From assembly GCA_038881595.1 (NCBI GenBank), contig JAVZPM010000002.1, positions 59,254 through 123,253 of the forward strand: a DNA stretch of 64,000 bases, written 5' to 3'. This document shows positions 7,243-59,503 of this stretch, piece by piece (the first letter of the stretch is position 1; every line of letters starts with the position of its first letter). The DNA comes from Candidatus Micrarchaeia archaeon. GTDB lineage: Archaea > Micrarchaeota > Micrarchaeia > CABMEP01. Both the position numbers and the translations under genes were made by a program. Below the pieces are notes generated by a model that did no database searches, was not told the origin of the DNA, and saw only the letters and a program-made list of their open reading frames with translations.

Positions 7243-7695
7243 ATGAAGAAAATTAATAATCTCGTAAAAAAAGGACAAGTTGCATTTGAATTCCTTCTCA
7301 TTTATAGCTTTTTCATATTTGTATTTCTTTCTTCGCTTTATATAATCTCTGGACAGGCAGTTCAACAACAAAGGTATGCAGAAGGATTGTATGCGAGAGA
7401 ATTTATTGTAACAATTGCAGATGAGATAAACGCAGCAGCTATGATTGAAGGCTACGAAAAGAATTTAAATATTCCAACTACAATGAGCAGCGTCCCATAT
7501 CAACTATATGTATATAAAGGTATGATTGGATTAAATTACAGCTCAATAACGAATATAGATCTACTATATCCTTTAGCAACAGATAAAGTATTTGTAAATG
7601 GAGTAGATACATCTAAGTACATTGGATATATTAATACAGCAAAAGGAAAGTTAAAAATAATAAGCTCACAGGGCATGGTGATCTTAAATGACTAA
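7243..7695 (+). CDS. Archaeal type IV pilin-like protein
   Basis: N-terminus MKKINNLVKKG|QVAFEFLLIYSFFIFVFL (class III signal peptide pattern). Confidence 0.5.
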   Translation: MKKINNLVKKGQVAFEFLLIYSFFIFVFLSSLYIISGQAVQQQRYAEGLYAREFIVTIADEINAAAMIEGYEKNLNIPTTMSSVPYQLYVYKGMIGLNYSSITNIDLLYPLATDKVFVNGVDTSKYIGYINTAKGKLKIISSQGMVILND

Positions 7696-8200
7696 AATTT
7701 TTAATTCAAATGAAAACAAAATAAAATACAGAACTAAAAAAGGCCAGTTTTTTTCGTATGATGCGATAGTAGCTGGAATACTTTTCATTCTTCTTTTGAC
7801 AATACTTTATAATTATTGGAATTCATTAAGAACAACAGTTTCAATAAGGATTGATGATTCATCAAGAATTGCATTAAGTGTTTCGAACATGCTTCTGACA
7901 CCTGGTTATCCTTTAAATTGGAATTCATCTAACTTTAATCAGATAGGATTAACAGAAAACTATAATACAATAAAACTTAATGAAGCAAAGGTTTCAAATC
8001 TCACTCTTATTTCTTATATAAATTATGAATTGATGAAAGAAAGGCTGGGGGTAGGACCTTATGAGATATATATTACAATCGGAGATGAAAGAATAGGCAA
8101 TGCTCCTTTAAATCCGACATCCAAGGTCACAATAACAAGGCCAGCCATATATAAGGATAGATTAGAAAATTTATCCGTAACTATTTGGAGTACAAAATGA
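7688..8200 (+). CDS. Archaeal type IV pilin-like protein
   Basis: N-terminus ...YRTKKG|QFFSYDAIVAGILFILLLTIL; overlaps the preceding gene by 8 bp, consistent with an operon. Confidence 0.5.
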   Translation: MTKIFNSNENKIKYRTKKGQFFSYDAIVAGILFILLLTILYNYWNSLRTTVSIRIDDSSRIALSVSNMLLTPGYPLNWNSSNFNQIGLTENYNTIKLNEAKVSNLTLISYINYELMKERLGVGPYEIYITIGDERIGNAPLNPTSKVTITRPAIYKDRLENLSVTIWSTK

Positions 8201-43570: not shown

Positions 43571-44500
43571 CTAGACTTTTATTTTTCCAATTATTCTCAT
43601 CTTTCCTTCTGGCTTCAATAAAAGATATTCATTTCCAGGAATGATTGCAATATCTCTATCTGATTTAAGTTTTATTTTTCCTTCTGAAATGCTTACAACA
43701 TCAACTTGCCTGTATTGAAGATGTGCAGCAATAAATATTTTGCTGTTTTCTTTTAATTCTTCTGTATAGTACTTATTCTTTATGAAATCGCCCTCTATTT
43801 CTCTTATAGATTTTAATTCCTGTTTTGAAAATAAATGCCCTCGTTCTACATCTTCAACACTGACTCCTTTTAGAGCCAGGCCTACTCTTTCTCCTATTTC
43901 AGCGGATTTTACATCTTTATCATGGACTTGTATAGAACGGATAGTTACTTTTTTTCCTCCAGGATATATTCCAAATTCATCATGGACATTTACATTCCCT
44001 CTTGCAACACCAAGAACAACAGTCCCAACACTTTTAACATCGAAAGCAGAATCTATTATTATGTATTCTATTTCTGATTTTTTATTTTCAAATTTTGCAA
44101 TTCTTGGATATATTTCAGATGGAACCTTATCCACAATTATAAACGATTCAAGAACAGTTCCTCTTACTAGATTTACAAATTTGTCTTTTTCGACGTAGTC
44201 ATCAAATATTATCAATCCTTTTTTTATTCCTAAAAGGTCAAGTGCAATTATGTATTCTCCCAATTCTTTATCTAATTTTTTAACAACTAAAATTGCTGCA
44301 TCAGCCATTGCTAAACAATGTGTAAGAGATTGGAGTTTTTCTGGATAGCTTGTAGGAACTAAGAAAGTTGCAGTTAGTTCTCCACCTTGCATGTCACTTC
44401 CTTTGTAATTATATATTGTAAAATCAGTAACAGTTCCTTTTTTTCCTAGTTCTTTTGCAAATTCGTTGTCTCCTAAAATTACTACATTTATATTTTTCAT
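43571..44500 (-). CDS. EF-Tu/SelB/aIF2-gamma-fold protein with degenerate G domain (putative pseudo-GTPase)
   Basis: Domain II beta-barrel pattern (VGTVVLGVARGNVNV...GERVGLALKGVSVEDVERG); the N-terminal region lacks the GHVDHGK P-loop and DxxG. Confidence 0.5.
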   Translation of the reverse strand: MKNINVVILGDNEFAKELGKKGTVTDFTIYNYKGSDMQGGELTATFLVPTSYPEKLQSLTHCLAMADAAILVVKKLDKELGEYIIALDLLGIKKGLIIFDDYVEKDKFVNLVRGTVLESFIIVDKVPSEIYPRIAKFENKKSEIEYIIIDSAFDVKSVGTVVLGVARGNVNVHDEFGIYPGGKKVTIRSIQVHDKDVKSAEIGERVGLALKGVSVEDVERGHLFSKQELKSIREIEGDFIKNKYYTEELKENSKIFIAAHLQYRQVDVVSISEGKIKLKSDRDIAIIPGNEYLLLKPEGKMRIIGKIKV

Positions 44501-45362: not shown

Positions 45363-45647
45363 ATGATGTCTAAAATCCCTATAAAATTGGATAAAGTGAA
45401 TAAGAAAGATATAGATAAAGAAATTTTAAGAGCAGGAATAATTGCAGAACTTGATGCAATAAATCTATATGAGCAAATGGCAGCATTGGCTCAAGACAAA
45501 AATATAAAAGCTATACTTCTTGACATTGCAAAAGAAGAGAAGACCCATGTCGGCGAGTTTCAAAGGCTTCTTTTGAATCGAGATAAGCAACAGGCAGAAG
45601 AATTAGAAAAAGGAAAGGAAGAAGTAATGAAAGAAGTAGGAGAATAG
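45363..45647 (+). CDS. Small ferritin/rubrerythrin-like helical-hairpin protein
   Basis: AELDAINLYEQMA and EEKTHVGEF (ExxH) suggest a half-ferritin diiron-type hairpin; tentative. Confidence 0.35.
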   Translation: MMSKIPIKLDKVNKKDIDKEILRAGIIAELDAINLYEQMAALAQDKNIKAILLDIAKEEKTHVGEFQRLLLNRDKQQAEELEKGKEEVMKEVGE

Positions 45648-46942: not shown

Positions 46943-47385
46943 AAGCTATTTTTCTAGCTAAGACTTATAAATATTTAACAGCTAAAGAAAGATATAAAAA
47001 TTAATTTATACAAATATATCTGAACATTCAAAATTTTTATTAGGTGATTATTTGGGTTCTAGACCAAGAAAATGGAAGAAAAAAGGAAAAATGAGATGGA
47101 AATGGATCAAGAAGAGAAGAAAGAAAATGAGAAGAATGCAAAAGAGAAGAGTAGGAGAACTGTAAGGTGTTTTTATGACAAGAAGCTTCATAAAAAACAT
47201 GTCTTCATGGTTCAAGTCAACTTTTTGGGATAGGGTTTTCTCTAAAAAAACCAGAATCATATTCCAAAAAGAAAAAAACACCTAAACAGTACTATAAAGG
47301 AAAAGAACGCCAACAAATCTCTTCCATGAAAAAGAAAAGATAATTTTTTAGATTTTTATTTTATATTTTTAAATCGGCGTGTCTT

Positions 47386-48192
47386 ATGGTAAAAAGATCA
47401 ATAAAAATAAAAGGTAAATCTGCAAAAAGCAATACTCATTCTAATTCTTCAAAAAAGGAATACAGCCTTTATAAGCTTATAACAAGCAGAAATATCGGTG
47501 CATTGTCTGAAAAGGAACAGGATATTCTTTTTAATGCAAAGATTGCAGTTGTCGGCTGCGGTGGTCTTGGAGGGATTGCTATAGATCTCCTTGCAAGGGC
47601 AGGAGTTGGAAACCTGACCATTGCAGATGGAGATGTATTTGAAATTTCAAATCTAAACAGACAGATCTTTAGTAGCTATTCAGTAATTGGCAAAAAGAAA
47701 GTGGATATAATAAAGAAAAGAGTATTAGATATTTCTCCTTCGACTAAGATTAAAACTTATGACAAATTTGTTGATTCAGAAGAAGCAGCGTTTAATCTAT
47801 TGAAAGGTCATGATGTAGTAGTTGATGGTTTAGATAATGTTCTTTCAAGAATCTATCTTTCAAGAGCAGCAAAGGACTTGCAGATACCTTATGTCTTTGG
47901 TGCAGCAGAAAAGACGAGAGGATATTCAACCATATTCCTTCCAAAAGGTCAGAGCTACGAATCAATATTCATGCTTCCTTCAAATGGTAAGAAAATAGAT
48001 GAAAAATTGAAAGAAAGGTTGCAAAAGGCAGGGGGCTGTTATTCCATACTTGGCATAACTGCAAATATCATAGGTTCAATAGAAGCAATGCAGACCATTA
48101 ATCTTCTCTTAAATAAGCCATATGTGTGCGCTCCAGATTTTATTCATTTTTCTTTATTTGATTCAGTTCCATTTAGAATTTCACCTCTCTAA
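47386..48192 (+). CDS. ThiF/MoeB/HesA-family E1-like protein
   Basis: Nucleotide-binding VGCGGLGG and downstream RQ motif typical of E1-like adenylyltransferases. Confidence 0.85.
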   Translation: MVKRSIKIKGKSAKSNTHSNSSKKEYSLYKLITSRNIGALSEKEQDILFNAKIAVVGCGGLGGIAIDLLARAGVGNLTIADGDVFEISNLNRQIFSSYSVIGKKKVDIIKKRVLDISPSTKIKTYDKFVDSEEAAFNLLKGHDVVVDGLDNVLSRIYLSRAAKDLQIPYVFGAAEKTRGYSTIFLPKGQSYESIFMLPSNGKKIDEKLKERLQKAGGCYSILGITANIIGSIEAMQTINLLLNKPYVCAPDFIHFSLFDSVPFRISPL

Positions 48193-48236: not shown

Positions 48237-49067
48237 ATGAAATTTGGCACAGCTGGAGTTCCAATCTCATGTGAAAAAAGAGATTCAATTTCTGGAATAG
48301 AATGTGTTTATAACTTAGGTTTAGATGCATTTGAGTTAGAATTCGTGCATGGATGTAGAATGAATGAAGGAAGTGCCAAGGAAGTAGGACAGATTGCTAA
48401 AAAATATAACATAGTTCTAAGCGCTCATGCTTCTTATTACTTGAATCTACTTTCTGAAGAAAAGCTGAAATATAAGAAAACAGTAGATGAAATAATTAAG
48501 ACAGCAAAGATACTTCATATCGCAGGAGGAGACAGGCTAGTGTTTCATCCTGGTTTTTTCTTAAAGATGGGTCATGATAAGGCATATGAGCGAATGAAAG
48601 GAGAATTTAAGTCTCTTGCAAAGCAGATAAAAGAAAATAATTTTCATGTTCATCTTGCTCCAGAGACAACTGGAAAACCAACTGCATTCGGTTCATTTGA
48701 AGATCTTTTTTCTCTTGCAGAAGAAATTGGATATGATTTAATAAGGCCAACGATTGATTGGGCACACATGCATGCAAGAGAAAATGGAAGGTTTAGAACA
48801 AAAGAAGATTATGTTAAGGTATTAGAGTTTGTAGAGAAAAAAGTAGGAAAAGAAGGATTAAAGACACTTCATTGTCACATGTCATCAATCAACTTCACTT
48901 CTAAAGGAGAGAGGAATCATCTTACAATGGATAATGACATTCCTCCAGTCAAACCTCTTTTTGAAGCATTACATGAATTCAAATGCGACGGTGTGATAAT
49001 ATCTGAATCACCAAACATTGAAAAAGATGCAATATATATGAAGAGATTATTCAATTCTATAAAGTAG
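48237..49067 (+). CDS. AP endonuclease family 2 / endonuclease IV-like TIM-barrel protein
   Basis: SAHASYYLNL resembles the Endo IV HAPYLINL motif, with several conserved His/Glu/Asp positions. Confidence 0.5.
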   Translation: MKFGTAGVPISCEKRDSISGIECVYNLGLDAFELEFVHGCRMNEGSAKEVGQIAKKYNIVLSAHASYYLNLLSEEKLKYKKTVDEIIKTAKILHIAGGDRLVFHPGFFLKMGHDKAYERMKGEFKSLAKQIKENNFHVHLAPETTGKPTAFGSFEDLFSLAEEIGYDLIRPTIDWAHMHARENGRFRTKEDYVKVLEFVEKKVGKEGLKTLHCHMSSINFTSKGERNHLTMDNDIPPVKPLFEALHEFKCDGVIISESPNIEKDAIYMKRLFNSIK

Positions 49068-49142: not shown

Positions 49143-50357
49143 ATGGCAAAGAGAATCAAACCTTCTGGCAAATCTAAATCAGTAGGTCCAAAGAGGCCTA
49201 GATCTTTAATTTCAAAACGCATTCCTGAGAGCAGGAGTGAAAGAAAAGATCTTGTTTTCATGGATTATGCATCATCTACACCAATACGCGAAGAAGTTTT
49301 AGAGGCAATGCAACCATATTTTAAATATAAGTTCGGAAATCCATCATCCCTTCATTCTTATGGCCGTGATGCAAAGTTGGCAATAGAACAATCAAAGGAA
49401 ATAATTGCAAAGACAATTAATGCATCACCAGATGAAATTGTTTTCACCTCAGGTTCAACAGAATCTTCAGTTCTTGCAATAAGAGGAGTAGCCAAAGCAA
49501 AGATCGCATATGGTAGTCATATATTATCTTCAGCAATAGAACACGATCCAGTTTTTTCAACATGTAAATCACTAGTTACAGAAGGTTATACCCTTTCAAG
49601 TCTTCTTGTAGATGTTGATGGAATGATAAGTATAGCGGATTTAAGATCAAAGATAACTCCAAAGACAATACTTGTGTCTATACAGCATTCAAACGGAGAG
49701 ATAGGAACAATTCAGCAGATAGAGGACGTAGGAAGAATAACTAAAGAAAAAAACGTGACTTTACATACCGATGCAACATTTTCTTATGGCTGGGTTCCAT
49801 TAGATGTAAAAAAGATGAATGTAGATCTAATGAGTTTCGATGCACACCACTCTTATGGTCCTAAGGGAATAGGTGCACTCTATGTAAAGAACGGAACTCC
49901 TATAAAGCCGATATTTCCAAATAGAGAGAACATTCTCCGCCCAGGTACACTAAGTGTTGCATCTATAGTAGGTTTTGCCGTTGCAGCAGAGTTAGCACAT
50001 AAGGAAATGAGTAAGACTCAAAAGAATCTAATTAAGCTTCAAAAGATGTTCATTGATTATGTAGAAGAAAACATAAAATTCGTGAAACTTAATGGTCATC
50101 TTACAAAAAGATTGCCAAATAATGTCAACTTTAGTTTCAGTGGGATAACCGGTACGGAACTTGTTAAGCAACTCGAGGAGAAAGGATTTATTACCTCAAC
50201 TTGCATAGATTGCAGAGTTCTTGAGGCGATAGGTGTCAAGGGAGAGAAATTTACTGGATCTGTAAGATTTACATTTGGAAAAGACACAACTCCTGAAGAA
50301 GTAAAAAGTTTGTCTATAACATTGAAGTCACTAGTGGAAACAGCGAGACAGGGCTAA
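49143..50357 (+). CDS. NifS/IscS-like class V aminotransferase-fold protein lacking the PLP-binding lysine
   Basis: Overall IscS-like (FGNPSSLHSYGR, TSGSTES, GSVRFTFG), but the SxHK site reads DAHHSYGPKG and the catalytic Cys loop is replaced by TSTCIDCRV. Confidence 0.7.
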   Translation: MAKRIKPSGKSKSVGPKRPRSLISKRIPESRSERKDLVFMDYASSTPIREEVLEAMQPYFKYKFGNPSSLHSYGRDAKLAIEQSKEIIAKTINASPDEIVFTSGSTESSVLAIRGVAKAKIAYGSHILSSAIEHDPVFSTCKSLVTEGYTLSSLLVDVDGMISIADLRSKITPKTILVSIQHSNGEIGTIQQIEDVGRITKEKNVTLHTDATFSYGWVPLDVKKMNVDLMSFDAHHSYGPKGIGALYVKNGTPIKPIFPNRENILRPGTLSVASIVGFAVAAELAHKEMSKTQKNLIKLQKMFIDYVEENIKFVKLNGHLTKRLPNNVNFSFSGITGTELVKQLEEKGFITSTCIDCRVLEAIGVKGEKFTGSVRFTFGKDTTPEEVKSLSITLKSLVETARQG

Positions 50358-50390: not shown

Positions 50391-52514
50391 TTGATAATTT
50401 GTGATTTAATGGTTGGAATAAAAGAAGTTCAAAAAAGAGACGGTTCAATAGTGAAATTTGATCAATCTAAAATCACAAATGCAGTTTACAAAGCAACTGA
50501 GGCTGCTAAAACGCCAGATATGAAATTTGCACAAAAGATTTCAGATAGAGTGGTTAAAAAACTATCTGCTATTTTTAAAAATAAAATACCTTCAGTTGAA
50601 GAGATACAAGATATCGTTGTAGAGGAACTTTTAAAGGAGAATAAAAAAATTGCAAAACTTTACATCAATTACAGGAGGGAGAGAGCAGAGATAAGAGAAA
50701 AGAAAAAAGTTCTTTTTGGCGTTTATGATGATCTTAAATTAGATCTAAATGCAACTAAGGTATTAGCTTCAAGATATCTACAGAAGGATGTTAGCGGAAA
50801 AATTATAGAGACTCCAAAGCAAATGTTTAAACGAGTCGCAAAGAAAATTGCAGAATCAGATCGTATTTATGGAGAAGATGTGAAAAAATCAGAAAAAATT
50901 TTCTATGAAATGATGAGTAATCTTGAATTCCTACCAAATTCACCAACTTTAATGAATGCAGGAACGAGATTAGGACAGCTTTCTGCGTGTTTTGTTCTTC
51001 CAATAGATGATTCTTTAGAAAGTATTTTTGAGACATTGAAGTATGCAGCCCTTATACATCAAAGTGGAGGAGGGACTGGTTTTTCATTTTCAAAAATTAG
51101 GCCAAAAGGTGACTTAGTACGTTCTACAATGTCAATTGCATCAGGTCCTGTTTCATTCATGAAGATATATGATGCGATGACAGAAACGATAAAACAAGGG
51201 GGAAGAAGACGCGGTGCAAACATGGGTGTTCTTAGATGTGATCATCCAGATATAATTGAATTTATTAATTCCAAAAAACAAGGTGGACTGAAAAACTTTA
51301 ACATTTCAGTAGCAGCAACAGATAATTTCATGAAAGCAGTTCAAAAAGATGACGATTATGAATTAATAAATCCAAGAACTGGGGAAGTAACTAAAACAAT
51401 CTCTGCAAGGGAAGTTTTTAATCTTGTAGCTGAGCAAGCTTGGGAAATAGGTGACCCGGGTCTTATATTTATAGATAGAATTAATAAATTACATCCATTA
51501 AGAAAAATTGGAGAAATAGAGGCTACAAATCCTTGTGGTGAGCAGCCTTTATTACCATATGAATCTTGTAATTTAGGAAGCATAAATCTTACTAAATTCA
51601 TACTTTCAGATGGAAGTGATTTTGATTGGGATAGATTAGAAATTGCAGTTCAAAACGCAGTGCATTTTTTAGACAATGTTATTGATGCAAATTCAATTCC
51701 TATTCGTGAAATAGACCAAGTTACAAAAGCAAATAGAAAGATAGGATTAGGTATAATGGGATGGGCAGATTCTCTCATTCTTCTTGGAATTAGATACGAT
51801 AGTAAAGAAGCGATTTTAATGGCTGAAAAGCTAATGAGATTTATAAGACAGATATCATATAATACTTCTATAGATCTTGCAAATGAAAGAGGAAGCTATC
51901 CTAATTTTAAGTTTTCGATTTATCCATCAAAATATAAGCGATTAAGAAACGCAACATTAAATACTATTGCACCAACAGGTTCACTTTCAATAATTGCAGG
52001 TGTATCTTCTGGAATCGAACCTTTATTTGCAGTTGCTTATTATAGACAAGTTCTAGAAAATATGAAGCTAATAGAAATAAACAGAATCTTTCATTCTATG
52101 TCTATTGAAAGAGGTTTCTATAGCAGATCATTAATGGAAAAGATCTCACATGGTTTATCAATACAGAAAATGAGTGAAATTCCAAGGGATGTAAGAGATT
52201 TGTTTGTTACTGCTTATGATATTGAACCTATATGGCATTTAAAAATGCAAGCAGCTTTCCAAAAATATGTTGATAATGCAGTTTCAAAAACAATAAATTT
52301 ACCTTATGAAGCGACCGTTGAAGAGGTACAGGATATTTATATGAAAGCTTATGAATTAGGAATAAAGGGAATAACAATCTATAGATATGGAAGTAAAACA
52401 GAACAAGTTATATATTTAGGTCTTCCAAAAGAAGCTAGTGAAGAGCAGAAAAGAAAGATTACTGTTTCTTCTGAATTTGCAGGTCACTGTTCTTCAGGTA
52501 TTTGTCAAATTTAA
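50391..52514 (+). CDS. nrdJ: Ribonucleoside reductase, class II (adenosylcobalamin-dependent) with N-terminal ATP-cone
   Basis: ATP-cone (VQKRDGSIVKFDQSKI), active-site NPCGEQPL, C-terminal Cys pair; single-chain about 700 aa. Confidence 0.9.
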   Translation: MIICDLMVGIKEVQKRDGSIVKFDQSKITNAVYKATEAAKTPDMKFAQKISDRVVKKLSAIFKNKIPSVEEIQDIVVEELLKENKKIAKLYINYRRERAEIREKKKVLFGVYDDLKLDLNATKVLASRYLQKDVSGKIIETPKQMFKRVAKKIAESDRIYGEDVKKSEKIFYEMMSNLEFLPNSPTLMNAGTRLGQLSACFVLPIDDSLESIFETLKYAALIHQSGGGTGFSFSKIRPKGDLVRSTMSIASGPVSFMKIYDAMTETIKQGGRRRGANMGVLRCDHPDIIEFINSKKQGGLKNFNISVAATDNFMKAVQKDDDYELINPRTGEVTKTISAREVFNLVAEQAWEIGDPGLIFIDRINKLHPLRKIGEIEATNPCGEQPLLPYESCNLGSINLTKFILSDGSDFDWDRLEIAVQNAVHFLDNVIDANSIPIREIDQVTKANRKIGLGIMGWADSLILLGIRYDSKEAILMAEKLMRFIRQISYNTSIDLANERGSYPNFKFSIYPSKYKRLRNATLNTIAPTGSLSIIAGVSSGIEPLFAVAYYRQVLENMKLIEINRIFHSMSIERGFYSRSLMEKISHGLSIQKMSEIPRDVRDLFVTAYDIEPIWHLKMQAAFQKYVDNAVSKTINLPYEATVEEVQDIYMKAYELGIKGITIYRYGSKTEQVIYLGLPKEASEEQKRKITVSSEFAGHCSSGICQI

Positions 52515-57488: not shown

Positions 57489-57857
57489 ATGATACCTTGC
57501 GAATTCATGGTTACTGAACTTCTTCCTACAATAAGAAAGGAAACTGTGAAGTTTCTTATTTCAAAAAATTACTCTCAAAGAGAGGTTTCAAAAATGATAG
57601 GTATTTCAGAAGCGGCAGTTTCATTATACTTGAAAAAGAAAAGAGGATTGCATAAGAAGGAATTAGAAAAAATTATTACAGATTACATTCAAAAAAACTA
57701 TGATTTCAATAGAACATTCACTGAGAATGTTTGTAATCTTTGCAATGATTTTAGAAAATCCGGTTATTTCTGTAAAAGCCATAGAATAATATCAAAAATA
57801 CCTAAAGAAGAGTGCAAAGGTTGTTTCATAAATCATAAAGATGGTGAGATTAAATGA
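57489..57857 (+). CDS. HTH transcriptional regulator with C-terminal Cys cluster (putative Fe-S/Zn-binding)
   Basis: HTH-like segment (YSQREVSKMIGISEAAVSLYLKKKRG) and C-terminal CNLC...C...C..C; overlaps the iscS start by 4 bp. Confidence 0.45.
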   Translation: MIPCEFMVTELLPTIRKETVKFLISKNYSQREVSKMIGISEAAVSLYLKKKRGLHKKELEKIITDYIQKNYDFNRTFTENVCNLCNDFRKSGYFCKSHRIISKIPKEECKGCFINHKDGEIK

Positions 57858-59026
57858 AAAGAATATATCTTGATTATGCAGCCACTACTCCTGTAAGAGA
57901 TGAAGTTATTAAGGAAATGTTGCCTTATTTTAACAAGAATTTTGGAAATGCTTCTTCTCTTCATATGGATGGAAGAATTGCTGCAAATGCATTAAAAAAA
58001 GCAAGAGAAAAAATTGCAAATATAATAAATGTCTTACCGGAAGAGATAGTATTTACTTCAGGAGGGACGGAATCTGATAATCTTGCAATAAAAGGAATTG
58101 CTTATGCAAATAAAGACAAAGGAAATCATATAATAACTTCTTCAATTGAACATCATGCTGTACTAAATACGGTAAAGGAGTTAGAAAAAGAAGGCTTTAA
58201 AGTTACTTTTCTTCCCGTTAATAAATTCGGAGAAGTGAGTCCTAAAGATGTTGAGAATGCAATAACGGATAAGACAATATTAATTTCTATTATGCATGCA
58301 AATAATGAGATAGGTACAATCCAGCCTATAGATAAGATAGGTAAGGTAGCAAAGAAGTATAATATTCCTTTTCATGTAGATGCAGTTCAGAGTTTTTGCC
58401 ACATTCCAGTTGATGTAAAGAAAATGAATATCTCTCTTTTATCAGTCTCATCACACAAAATTGGGGGGCCAAAAGGAGTAGGAGCACTTTATGTCAGAAA
58501 AGATTTAAAATTGAAACCTCTGCTTACTGGCGGGCCGCATGAATTCAATAAAAGAGCAGGAACAGAAAATATTCCAGGAATTGTTGGCTTTGCAAAAGCA
58601 GCTGAAATATCATCAAATGAAATGGAGAAGGAAAGCAAAAGGTTGTCAAGGCTTAGAGACAAACTAATCAAATCAATTCTTTCAGAAGTTCCAGGATCAA
58701 GATTAAATGGACATCCTAAGAATAGGCTTCCAAACAATGTAAATTTTGGTTTTATTGGCGTAGAAGGAGAGGCATTACTTCTAATGCTTGATTCTTTAGG
58801 AATTTCAGCTTCAACAGGATCTGCATGTTCATCACATGATCTTTCACCTTCTCATGTATTACTTGCATTAGATCCCGATCCAGTTAAGGCGCATGGTTCT
58901 CTTAGATTAACATTAGGATATAAAACAAAAGAAGAAGAAATAGATAAAGTAATAAAGGTCATTCCTAAGATTGTTAATCAGATAAGAAAGATTACACCAA
59001 GAATAGAGGGGGTAACTACTTACTGA
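57854..59026 (+). CDS. iscS: Cysteine desulfurase (IscS/NifS)
   Basis: Canonical PLP site SSHKIGGPKG and catalytic loop STGSACSSHDLSPSHVL. Confidence 0.9.
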   Translation: MKRIYLDYAATTPVRDEVIKEMLPYFNKNFGNASSLHMDGRIAANALKKAREKIANIINVLPEEIVFTSGGTESDNLAIKGIAYANKDKGNHIITSSIEHHAVLNTVKELEKEGFKVTFLPVNKFGEVSPKDVENAITDKTILISIMHANNEIGTIQPIDKIGKVAKKYNIPFHVDAVQSFCHIPVDVKKMNISLLSVSSHKIGGPKGVGALYVRKDLKLKPLLTGGPHEFNKRAGTENIPGIVGFAKAAEISSNEMEKESKRLSRLRDKLIKSILSEVPGSRLNGHPKNRLPNNVNFGFIGVEGEALLLMLDSLGISASTGSACSSHDLSPSHVLLALDPDPVKAHGSLRLTLGYKTKEEEIDKVIKVIPKIVNQIRKITPRIEGVTTY

Positions 59027-59050: not shown

Positions 59051-59503
59051 ATGGTAAAAAATGAGCGTACAAAAAAGAACAAAAGCGCAGAGAAGACCAA
59101 AAGTCAGGAAATTACAAATTCATCTCTTTATACTCAAAAAGTAATGGAACATTTCATGAATCCGCATAATATGGGTGAGATAAAGGACGCAGATGCAATT
59201 GGAGAGGCAGGCAATGCAGTCTGCGGAGATGTTATGTATCTTTATCTGAAGATCAAGGATAATAGGATAAAAGACATAAAATTTAAGACACTGGGATGCG
59301 CTGCAGCTATAGCAACCAGTAGTATGGTGACGGATTTGGCGAAGGGAAAAACATTGGAGGAAGCGATTAAGATAACAAACAAAGAAGTTGCAGAAGAACT
59401 TGGTGGTCTTCCAGCTGTTAAAATGCATTGCTCTGTACTTGCACAGCAAGCATTAAAGAATGCAATTGAAAACTATTGGAAGAAACAGAAAAAGAAAGAA
59501 TAG
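59051..59503 (+). CDS. iscU: Fe-S cluster assembly scaffold IscU/NifU-like
   Basis: Three conserved Cys (AVCGDVMYL, LGCAAAIA, MHCSVLA) in the IscU pattern. Confidence 0.9.
   Translation: MVKNERTKKNKSAEKTKSQEITNSSLYTQKVMEHFMNPHNMGEIKDADAIGEAGNAVCGDVMYLYLKIKDNRIKDIKFKTLGCAAAIATSSMVTDLAKGKTLEEAIKITNKEVAEELGGLPAVKMHCSVLAQQALKNAIENYWKKQKKKE

Follow-up and report, generated by a model that had tools for sequence, protein, structure and literature searches.

The window analysed here, a 64,000-nt stretch of contig JAVZPM010000002.1 from a Candidatus Micrarchaeia archaeon, encodes a canonical cysteine desulfurase NifS and, at 49143..50357, a paralog that has lost the residues carrying pyridoxal 5´-phosphate (PLP) and the persulfide. 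The observation is confirmed: the paralog is a pseudo-desulfurase under selection. Its orthologs form one clade, in which the subclade of the paralog (His subclade) carries His at the Schiff-base position, while a sister subclade (K/R subclade) carries Lys or Arg. The features of the gene, with E. coli IscS as the residue reference, are:

49143..50357 (+): NifS/IscS-fold paralog without the Schiff-base Lys and the persulfide loop; open reading frame (ORF) of 404 aa
49143..49253 (+): Lys/Arg-rich N-terminal tail, residues 1–37, predicted to be disordered (predicted local distance difference test, pLDDT, <50 for residues 1–34)
49695..49697 (+): G185 for the invariant Asn (E. coli N155) of HxNNE; Gly in 16/16 of the His clade versus Asn in 100% of canonical sequences
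49779..49781 (+): F213 for the invariant Gln (E. coli Q183) of HxDAxQ; Phe in 16/16 of the His clade versus Gln in 100% of canonical sequences
49839..49850 (+): D233-A234-H235-H236 (GAT GCA CAC CAC), equivalent to E. coli S203-G204-H205-K206
50193..50216 (+): remnant of the Cys328 loop, T351–R358 (TSTCIDCR), 8 residues shorter than the full loop; C354 and C357 vary among orthologs
50346..50357 (+): early C-terminus; the stop lies two residues past the equivalent of E. coli R381, and the 'SP' tail and helix α12 are missing

Fold, active site and cysteine loop

The Aminotran_5 profile of Pfam (PF00266) covers the full length of the paralog (3.8e-63; profile positions 1–371 of 371). In BLASTP, the paralog shares 43% identity (E=1e-102) with the canonical NifS at 57854..59026, and the SSHK motif of the latter is aligned with DAHH. 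The AlphaFold2 model (pLDDT 90.3; predicted template modelling score, pTM, 0.86) is IscS-like, and Foldseek matches the model to NFS1, E. coli IscS and A. fulgidus IscS with template modelling (TM) scores of 0.87–0.88 and root-mean-square deviations of 1.5–1.8 Å. By the Pfam match and the predicted three-dimensional fold, the paralog is assigned to the NifS/IscS group of the class V aminotransferase fold. It falls below the NCBIfam equivalog cutoffs for NifS (350.5 versus 530.75), IscS (316 versus 643) and DndA (291 versus 480).

In E. coli IscS, PLP is carried on K206 (PMC2854127). BLASTP aligns H236 (CAC, 49848-49850) with the Lys of the canonical copy, a MAFFT alignment with E. coli IscS among its sequences places it opposite K206, and D233 stands in place of the phosphate-binding Ser (E. 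coli S203). An earlier annotation made from the sequence alone (the original prediction) had claimed a close alignment with the canonical copy, the substitution of the Schiff-base Lys by His and the resulting inability to form the usual internal aldimine. All three claims are borne out, since the K206 column is occupied by His and no substitute Lys is present. The Lys of GPKG, which could have been the true Schiff-base residue, is the homolog of E. coli K211. Canonical enzymes with the Schiff-base Lys in place conserve this second Lys at 99%, and the alignment contains no new Lys specific to the His subclade. A relocated Schiff-base Lys, either in GPKG or at a new position, was therefore rejected.

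The surrounding pocket has also changed. Conservation was referred to 105 canonical NifS/IscS sequences, which agree to 95% or more in 90 columns; of these, 51 are retained in the His clade and 39 have changed. Every member of the His subclade has D233 and H236, neither of which occurs in canonical sequences. Further fixed changes in the clade are E309 to Thr (E. coli numbering) and a 2-residue deletion in the GG loop, and the E311 column is variable. One ortholog (P0121) bears Ala at N155, Tyr at Q183 and Met in place of T243. As far as residue identities can tell, the Asp that now flanks the phosphate site and the aromatic side chain at the position of the O3´-binding Gln would speak against ordinary PLP binding, which has presumably been lost.

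The sulfur-carrying and partner-docking elements are degenerate as well. In E. coli IscS, the length of the Cys328 loop (residues 322–336) is required for sulfur transfer, IscU is contacted through helix α8 (E309-A316) and the C-terminal helix α12 (R379-K391), and a variant lacking residues 376–404 no longer binds IscU (PMC2854127). The mobile loop of the paralog is shortened by the deletion and bears no conserved persulfide Cys. C357, the second Cys of STCIDC, is aligned with the catalytic Cys in BLASTP but not in MAFFT, a difference in gap placement, and its column is occupied by Gly, Asp or Ser in orthologs. The loop reads STCIDC, STCIDG, STSIDG, TTCANC, TTSLND or STSSNS across the clade, and R358 replaces the His of 'SHVL' throughout the His subclade. 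The original prediction that the catalytic Cys loop had been replaced thus needs to be narrowed: the intact loop is gone, but eight residues were deleted rather than the whole loop exchanged, and C357 can still be aligned. Docking of IscU has probably been lost along with the loop. Overall, the paralog is very probably not a cysteine desulfurase.

The first 30 residues carry a net charge of +9, the highest among 51 long ORFs of the window. This basic tail is present in orthologs of at least 70% identity and absent in P0012-P0016. The tail was considered as a specific nucleic-acid-binding signal, which was rejected, as K-rich tails are common in the genome (ThiF, NifU and others) and the distant orthologs lack one. 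Lys-rich and probably disordered N-terminal extensions are indeed widespread, for example in the ORFs at 47386, 49143, 59051, 62865(-) and 12923(-). Related canonical NifS proteins (P0017, P0123-P0125) have still longer K-rich N-terminal tails together with acidic C-terminal tails. Among solved structures, the highest-scoring sequence match is a set of seven point variants of one protein (9wep, 9wer, 9wew, 9wf8, 9wfb, 9wfe and 9wfy), a 406-aa 'cysteine desulfurase' that keeps both the Lys and the Cys and scores 307 bits, above A. fulgidus IscS.

Orthologs, selection and the order of losses

The orthologs fall into about 17 clusters of 53–95% identity from more than 12 independent assemblies, all of which belong to Micrarchaeota (DPANN) where named, and a protein from a 'Candidatus Micrarchaeia' metagenome-assembled genome is 100% identical to the paralog. 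In an exhaustive search of 1.84 billion representatives clustered at 50% identity, a single representative (430 bits) stands for the entire clade and the next match drops to 304 bits; the clade is therefore a small, isolated family. His occupies the Schiff-base position in all 14 clusters of the His subclade (P0001-P0013 and P0121), in the three additional genomes L011-L013 and in contigs from metagenomes. The change from Lys (AAA/AAG) to His (CAC) at position 236 needs two base changes. Its conservation in related genomes together with the two-base codon difference excludes a sequencing error, and the substitution is a property of the subclade rather than of one assembly.

Selection on the paralog is close to that on the enzyme. 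For genome pairs that are 94–95% identical at the protein level, the ratio of nonsynonymous to synonymous substitution rates (dN/dS) is 0.06–0.15 for the paralog versus 0.04–0.08 for canonical NifS, and in a deeper genome pair the dN values of the two are alike (0.208 versus 0.207). The neighbour-joining tree unites all 19 sequences in a single clade that splits into two sister subclades, one of the His group and one of the K/R group. The sister sequences carry Lys (P0015 and P0016) or Arg (P0014) at the Schiff-base position, and all three keep N155, Q183 and S203. The loop deletion without the Cys, the α8 change and the truncated C-terminus are, however, already present in P0014-P0016. Because these lineages with Lys or Arg are already devoid of the loop, the sequences are most simply read as a loss of the face for sulfur transfer and IscU docking that preceded the loss of the PLP anchor. 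On the same reading, the anchoring Lys would have disappeared in at least two independent events, one leading to His and one to Arg.

Two ortholog genes of the clade are interrupted. The P0016 ortholog (L009:2227-3339) contains an in-frame stop (SVRISL*KDTTE) beyond which homology resumes, and that at L014:5095-6259 is broken by a frameshift; both could stem from decay in the lineage concerned, from recoding or from errors of assembly.

Genomic context

The neighbouring genes that bear on the role of the paralog are:

47386..48192 (+): ThiF/MoeB-type adenylation-domain protein (PF00899, 4.6e-50)
48237..49067 (+): AP_endonuc_2/xylose-isomerase-like TIM-barrel protein (PF01261, 4.3e-32)
50391..52514 (+): class II (adenosylcobalamin) ribonucleotide reductase NrdJ (TIGR02504, 727 bits versus a cutoff of 400)
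57854..59026 (+): canonical MIS-type NifS with SSHK and GSAC motifs (TIGR03402, 542 bits versus a cutoff of 530.75)
59051..59503 (+): NifU/IscU scaffold paired with the canonical NifS (TIGR03419, 201 bits versus 187.9; PF01592)

The NifS of the canonical pair (NifS/MisS and NifU/MisU in the MIS nomenclature; PMC13066941) is the likely duplication source of the paralog, with which it shares the fold and the neighbourhood. The canonical copy possesses K206, the C328 loop and the C-terminal tail and passes the NifS equivalog cutoff, whereas the paralog fails in all these respects. An intact NifS, accompanied by NifU, lies downstream on every paralog contig that extends far enough, and therefore the organism is independent of the paralog for sulfur mobilisation. 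The NifU nearest to the paralog is 8.7 kb away, paired with the canonical NifS, and none is adjacent to the paralog itself.

The gene order of the His subclade is TyrRS(-), a small basic ORF, ThiF, AP_endonuc_2, MgtC(-) in some loci, the paralog and NrdJ, followed by Bud32(-), DAC(-), Kae1(-), CobA(-), a helix-turn-helix (HTH) protein, NifS and NifU. In 14 of the 15 clade loci, NrdJ directly follows the paralog, with an overlap between the genes in one of them (L007); the sole exception, L009, is the locus with the in-frame stop in the paralog. ThiF is found upstream in all loci of the His subclade, and PadR takes its place in the K/R sister subclade (L007-L009). The whole 13-kb block is collinear, and the linkage to the E1-type gene may be inherited rather than selected.

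Both upstream neighbours named in the original prediction, a ThiF-type gene and an Endo IV-like gene, are present, although the Endo IV likeness of the latter is weak (nfo, 54.9 bits versus a cutoff of 129.65; endonuclease 4 in the PDB at 5.8e-07). The best PDB match of the ThiF-type protein is E. coli MoeB (82 bits). Its similarity is generic and below all curated cutoffs, and a specific assignment as TcdA, UbaA or MoeB was rejected.

A small basic ORF with the pattern MTRSF(I/V)K(N/S)M.SW(F/L)K precedes ThiF in the window (47175-47285, +) and in relatives (L003:3572-3823, L005:4108-4275 and L006:1127-1300). It encodes 36 aa in the window and 55–83 aa elsewhere, so that the window copy may be truncated, and it matches no family. 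The ORF was considered as a ubiquitin-like carrier and rejected, being a conserved basic peptide that is not a β-grasp protein and does not end in GG. In some relatives NrdJ is interrupted, with a gap of ~1 kb between homologous halves at L014:6319-9528 and two adjacent ORFs at L002:7222-9306 and L006:4203-6318; an intein, another insertion or frameshifts could be responsible.

Role of the paralog

We propose that the paralog arose as a Micrarchaeota-specific duplicate of the organism's own NifS, a MIS-type cysteine desulfurase, and was converted stepwise into a non-desulfurase. The first step, common to the clade, would have removed the sulfur-carrying and IscU-docking parts through deletion of the eight loop residues, loss of the α8 Glu residues and truncation of the C-terminal helix. 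In the second step, confined to sub-lineages, the Schiff-base Lys would have been replaced by His here and by Arg in another lineage, together with N155G/A, Q183F/Y and S203D in the present one. The intact NifS-NifU pair about 8 kb away would carry out the iron-sulfur (Fe-S) work. Because the fold is intact and purifying selection is as strong as on the real NifS, the paralog may act as a folded, probably dimeric structural or regulatory subunit, by binding and not by sulfur mobilisation. We favor this account, in which a protein derived from NifS is kept by selection for a non-catalytic function in binding, as the somewhat more probable one. It agrees with the original prediction of a pseudoenzyme, which remains the best reading in view of the changes at N155, Q183 and S203, the deleted loop, the variable Cys and a dN/dS near that of canonical NifS.

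The partner candidates, ranked by contextual support, are NrdJ, then the canonical NifS in a heterodimer, and then ThiF. Duplicated desulfurases of B. subtilis are encoded beside the proteins that they serve (NifZ-ThiI and YrvO-MnmA, as well as NifS-NadA; PMC13066941), and because such paralog and acceptor genes adjoin, NrdJ or ThiF is suspected as the partner here. The B. subtilis paralogs are active desulfurases, however, whereas the window paralog is devoid of the catalytic residues.

Several points weigh against a purely non-catalytic binding protein. The equivalents of H104, D180, H205, T243 and R354, which contact PLP or the substrate, remain invariant in the clade, and D233, H236, F213 and R358 are fixed rather than drifting, which would also suit a remodelled functional ligand pocket. 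Among 364 non-clade homologs, nine are without the Lys (D, T, Q, G, M, P or S instead); these mostly keep H104, D180 and T243 and mostly lose R354, which the clade retains. Collinearity of the entire block makes the adjacency to NrdJ weak evidence for a functional relation, and the adjacency may reflect this collinearity and nothing else. The neighbour-joining tree, which underlies the order of losses, is midpoint-rooted and carries no support values.

These residues underlie the case for altered chemistry, the other option in the original prediction, in which non-covalent PLP or pyridoxamine 5´-phosphate would be held in a remodelled pocket and a Cys-independent amino-acid reaction would use His236 as the general base in place of Lys. 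The invariant contacts, including the substrate-carboxylate Arg (R354), and the fixation of D233, H236, F213 and R358 are consistent with such a reaction, and the sister sequences P0015 and P0016, which have the Lys and an intact PLP site without the Cys, may already have supported a Cys-independent activity. However, four of the PLP contacts differ, including S203 to Asp beside the phosphate site and Q183 to Phe/Tyr, and T243 is replaced by Met in P0121. The retention of H104, D180 and T243 was rejected as a sign of PLP binding because most other Lys-less homologs keep the same residues, which makes it non-diagnostic. The separate loss of Lys to Arg in P0014 suggests that no specific residue is required at this position and, set beside the change to His, argues against a catalytic role of His in particular. 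We consider altered chemistry, the chief rival of the binding account, unlikely, while granting it a minor share of the probability. A related variant holds that the PLP pocket has been rebuilt as a ligand or metal site, with the paralog serving as an accessory factor of NrdJ or performing PLP-independent or non-covalent-PLP chemistry with a His base. The candidate residues of such a pocket would be the fixed D233, H235, H236, R358 and the aromatic residue at 213, together with the retained H134, D210 and R375. This variant appears improbable; if true, it would represent a neofunctionalised enzyme or chaperone on a desulfurase scaffold.

Desulfurases paired with E1-like proteins, such as CsdA-CsdE-TcdA and Nfs1-Uba4, are an established theme, and the original prediction had seen in the neighbouring ThiF a hint of a sulfur-relay or protein-modifier role of the paralog, which would be comparable to these. 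ThiF indeed lies two genes upstream on the same strand at every locus of the His subclade, down to orthologs of 54–57% identity. The AP_endonuc_2 gene, in some loci with the reverse-strand MgtC, nevertheless separates the two, PadR occupies the position of ThiF in the sister subclade, and the generically MoeB-like ThiF protein contains no cysteines in the stretch aligned to the Cys-containing segment of MoeB. No credible ORF of 45–130 aa that ends in GG, as expected of a ubiquitin-like or ThiS-MoaD carrier, was detected within the 64-kb window, and one may be encoded elsewhere in the genome. As the paralog is devoid of both residues needed for a persulfide, the Lys and a conserved Cys, it would not mobilise sulfur by the known mechanism. 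The relay is very improbable, and we do not retain this part of the prediction.

Lys-less IscS proteins had already been described (PMC7585200), a precedent that the original prediction missed. Residue features of A. fulgidus IscS were taken from the titles of PDB entries and from PMC7585200. This protein has Asp in place of the Lys, is reported to be devoid of desulfurase activity and contributes its loop Cys as a ligand of a [2Fe-2S] cluster on IscU (PMC7585200). The paralog resembles it (PDB 4EB5 and 4HVK; D199K mutant 4R5F; 261 bits, TM 0.87) in fold and in lacking the Lys. A corresponding role, in which a Lys-less IscS would sit on IscU or NifU as a Cys ligand donor for Fe-S assembly from free sulfide, gains some weight from the other lineages with His at this position, which adjoin NifU and keep the Cys. 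Unlike A. fulgidus IscS, with its Asp, its loop Cys and its IscU partner, the paralog has His, a loop shortened by eight residues and no conserved Cys. The α8 Glu residues and the α12 tail that correspond to the E. coli IscU contacts are gone, no IscU is adjacent, and the only nearby NifU belongs to the intact canonical pair. An A. fulgidus-type role is thus hardly credible. M. acetivorans IscS1 is a Lys-less paralog among several IscS copies that is suspected to be non-catalytic (PMC7585200); it differs from the paralog in being encoded with its own IscU1, and the text available from that source reports no loop deletion.

A metagenome scan for 'HHxYGPKG' recovered at least 13 NifS-like loci in which His occupies the Schiff-base position, at least 4 of which belong to the paralog clade. 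At least 9 are found in unrelated lineages (guanine-cytosine (GC) content 49–68%) and keep the Cys loop and the tail. Among the matches listed, the gene adjoins NifU/IscU in 3 of the 3 unrelated contigs that are long enough (L071, L086 and L122). Four such proteins (L071, L086, L122 and L101) resemble the paralog in the Lys-to-His change within 'HHFYGPKG' and in changes at N155 and Q183, and differ from it in a full-length loop with Cys and a retained 'SP' tail at 26–41% identity. Their contigs have 57–67% GC; the genes include L071:6047-7570 (-), with NifU at 7398-7823, and L101:4360-5559, and IscA and ApbC/Mrp also lie beside the L071 gene. The L071, L086 and L122 proteins look like undescribed pairs of the A. 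fulgidus type. Replacement of the Lys by His is recurrent in the family, usually in an A. fulgidus-like partnership with IscU.

Decay of the gene, or an error of sequencing or assembly, to which the in-frame stop in the distant L009/P0016 ortholog and the frameshift in contig L014 might point, is effectively refuted by the intact ORFs in more than 12 independent assemblies, a dN/dS like that of canonical NifS, the confident predicted fold and the two-base codon change.

Lys-less IscS is thus already known, and it is the doubly degenerate form, without a link to IscU and beside an intact NifS-NifU pair, that sets the paralog apart; literature searches yielded nothing specific on this clade, on Lys-to-His desulfurases or on desulfurase pseudoenzymes. 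Discussion of the known Lys-less IscS proteins has until now treated them as partners of IscU in which the loop Cys remains in use, and the clade represents a stage beyond them. The loop, the docking elements and the PLP anchor are gone, yet the protein is tightly conserved in genome-reduced DPANN, where useless genes normally vanish fast. The extant sisters preserve intermediates (loop gone with Lys retained, Lys to Arg, Lys to His) and provide a readable trajectory from enzyme to pseudoenzyme, and the identity of the partner would expose a non-catalytic use of the desulfurase scaffold. Public records name these proteins 'cysteine desulfurase'; they should not be counted as sulfur-mobilising capacity in reconstructions of DPANN metabolism.

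Three further genes of the window were recorded. The 309-aa protein at 43571-44500 (-) is matched only over SelB/EF-Tu domains II/III (TIGR00475, 69.7 bits, residues 138-293), and its N-terminal ~135 residues are unmatched where a GTPase domain is expected. At 45363-45647 (+), a 94-aa EncFtn-like/rubrerythrin-like protein of the ferritin fold is encoded (PF22277, 4.7e-08), with no obvious encapsulin shell gene alongside. The 122-aa HTH protein at 57489-57857 (+), which has no NCBIfam match, bears a Cys-rich C-terminus (CNLCN...CKSH...CKGC). Its gene, which is syntenic in relatives, extends over the start of the canonical NifS, and the protein is a candidate Fe-S-sensing regulator of NifS-NifU.

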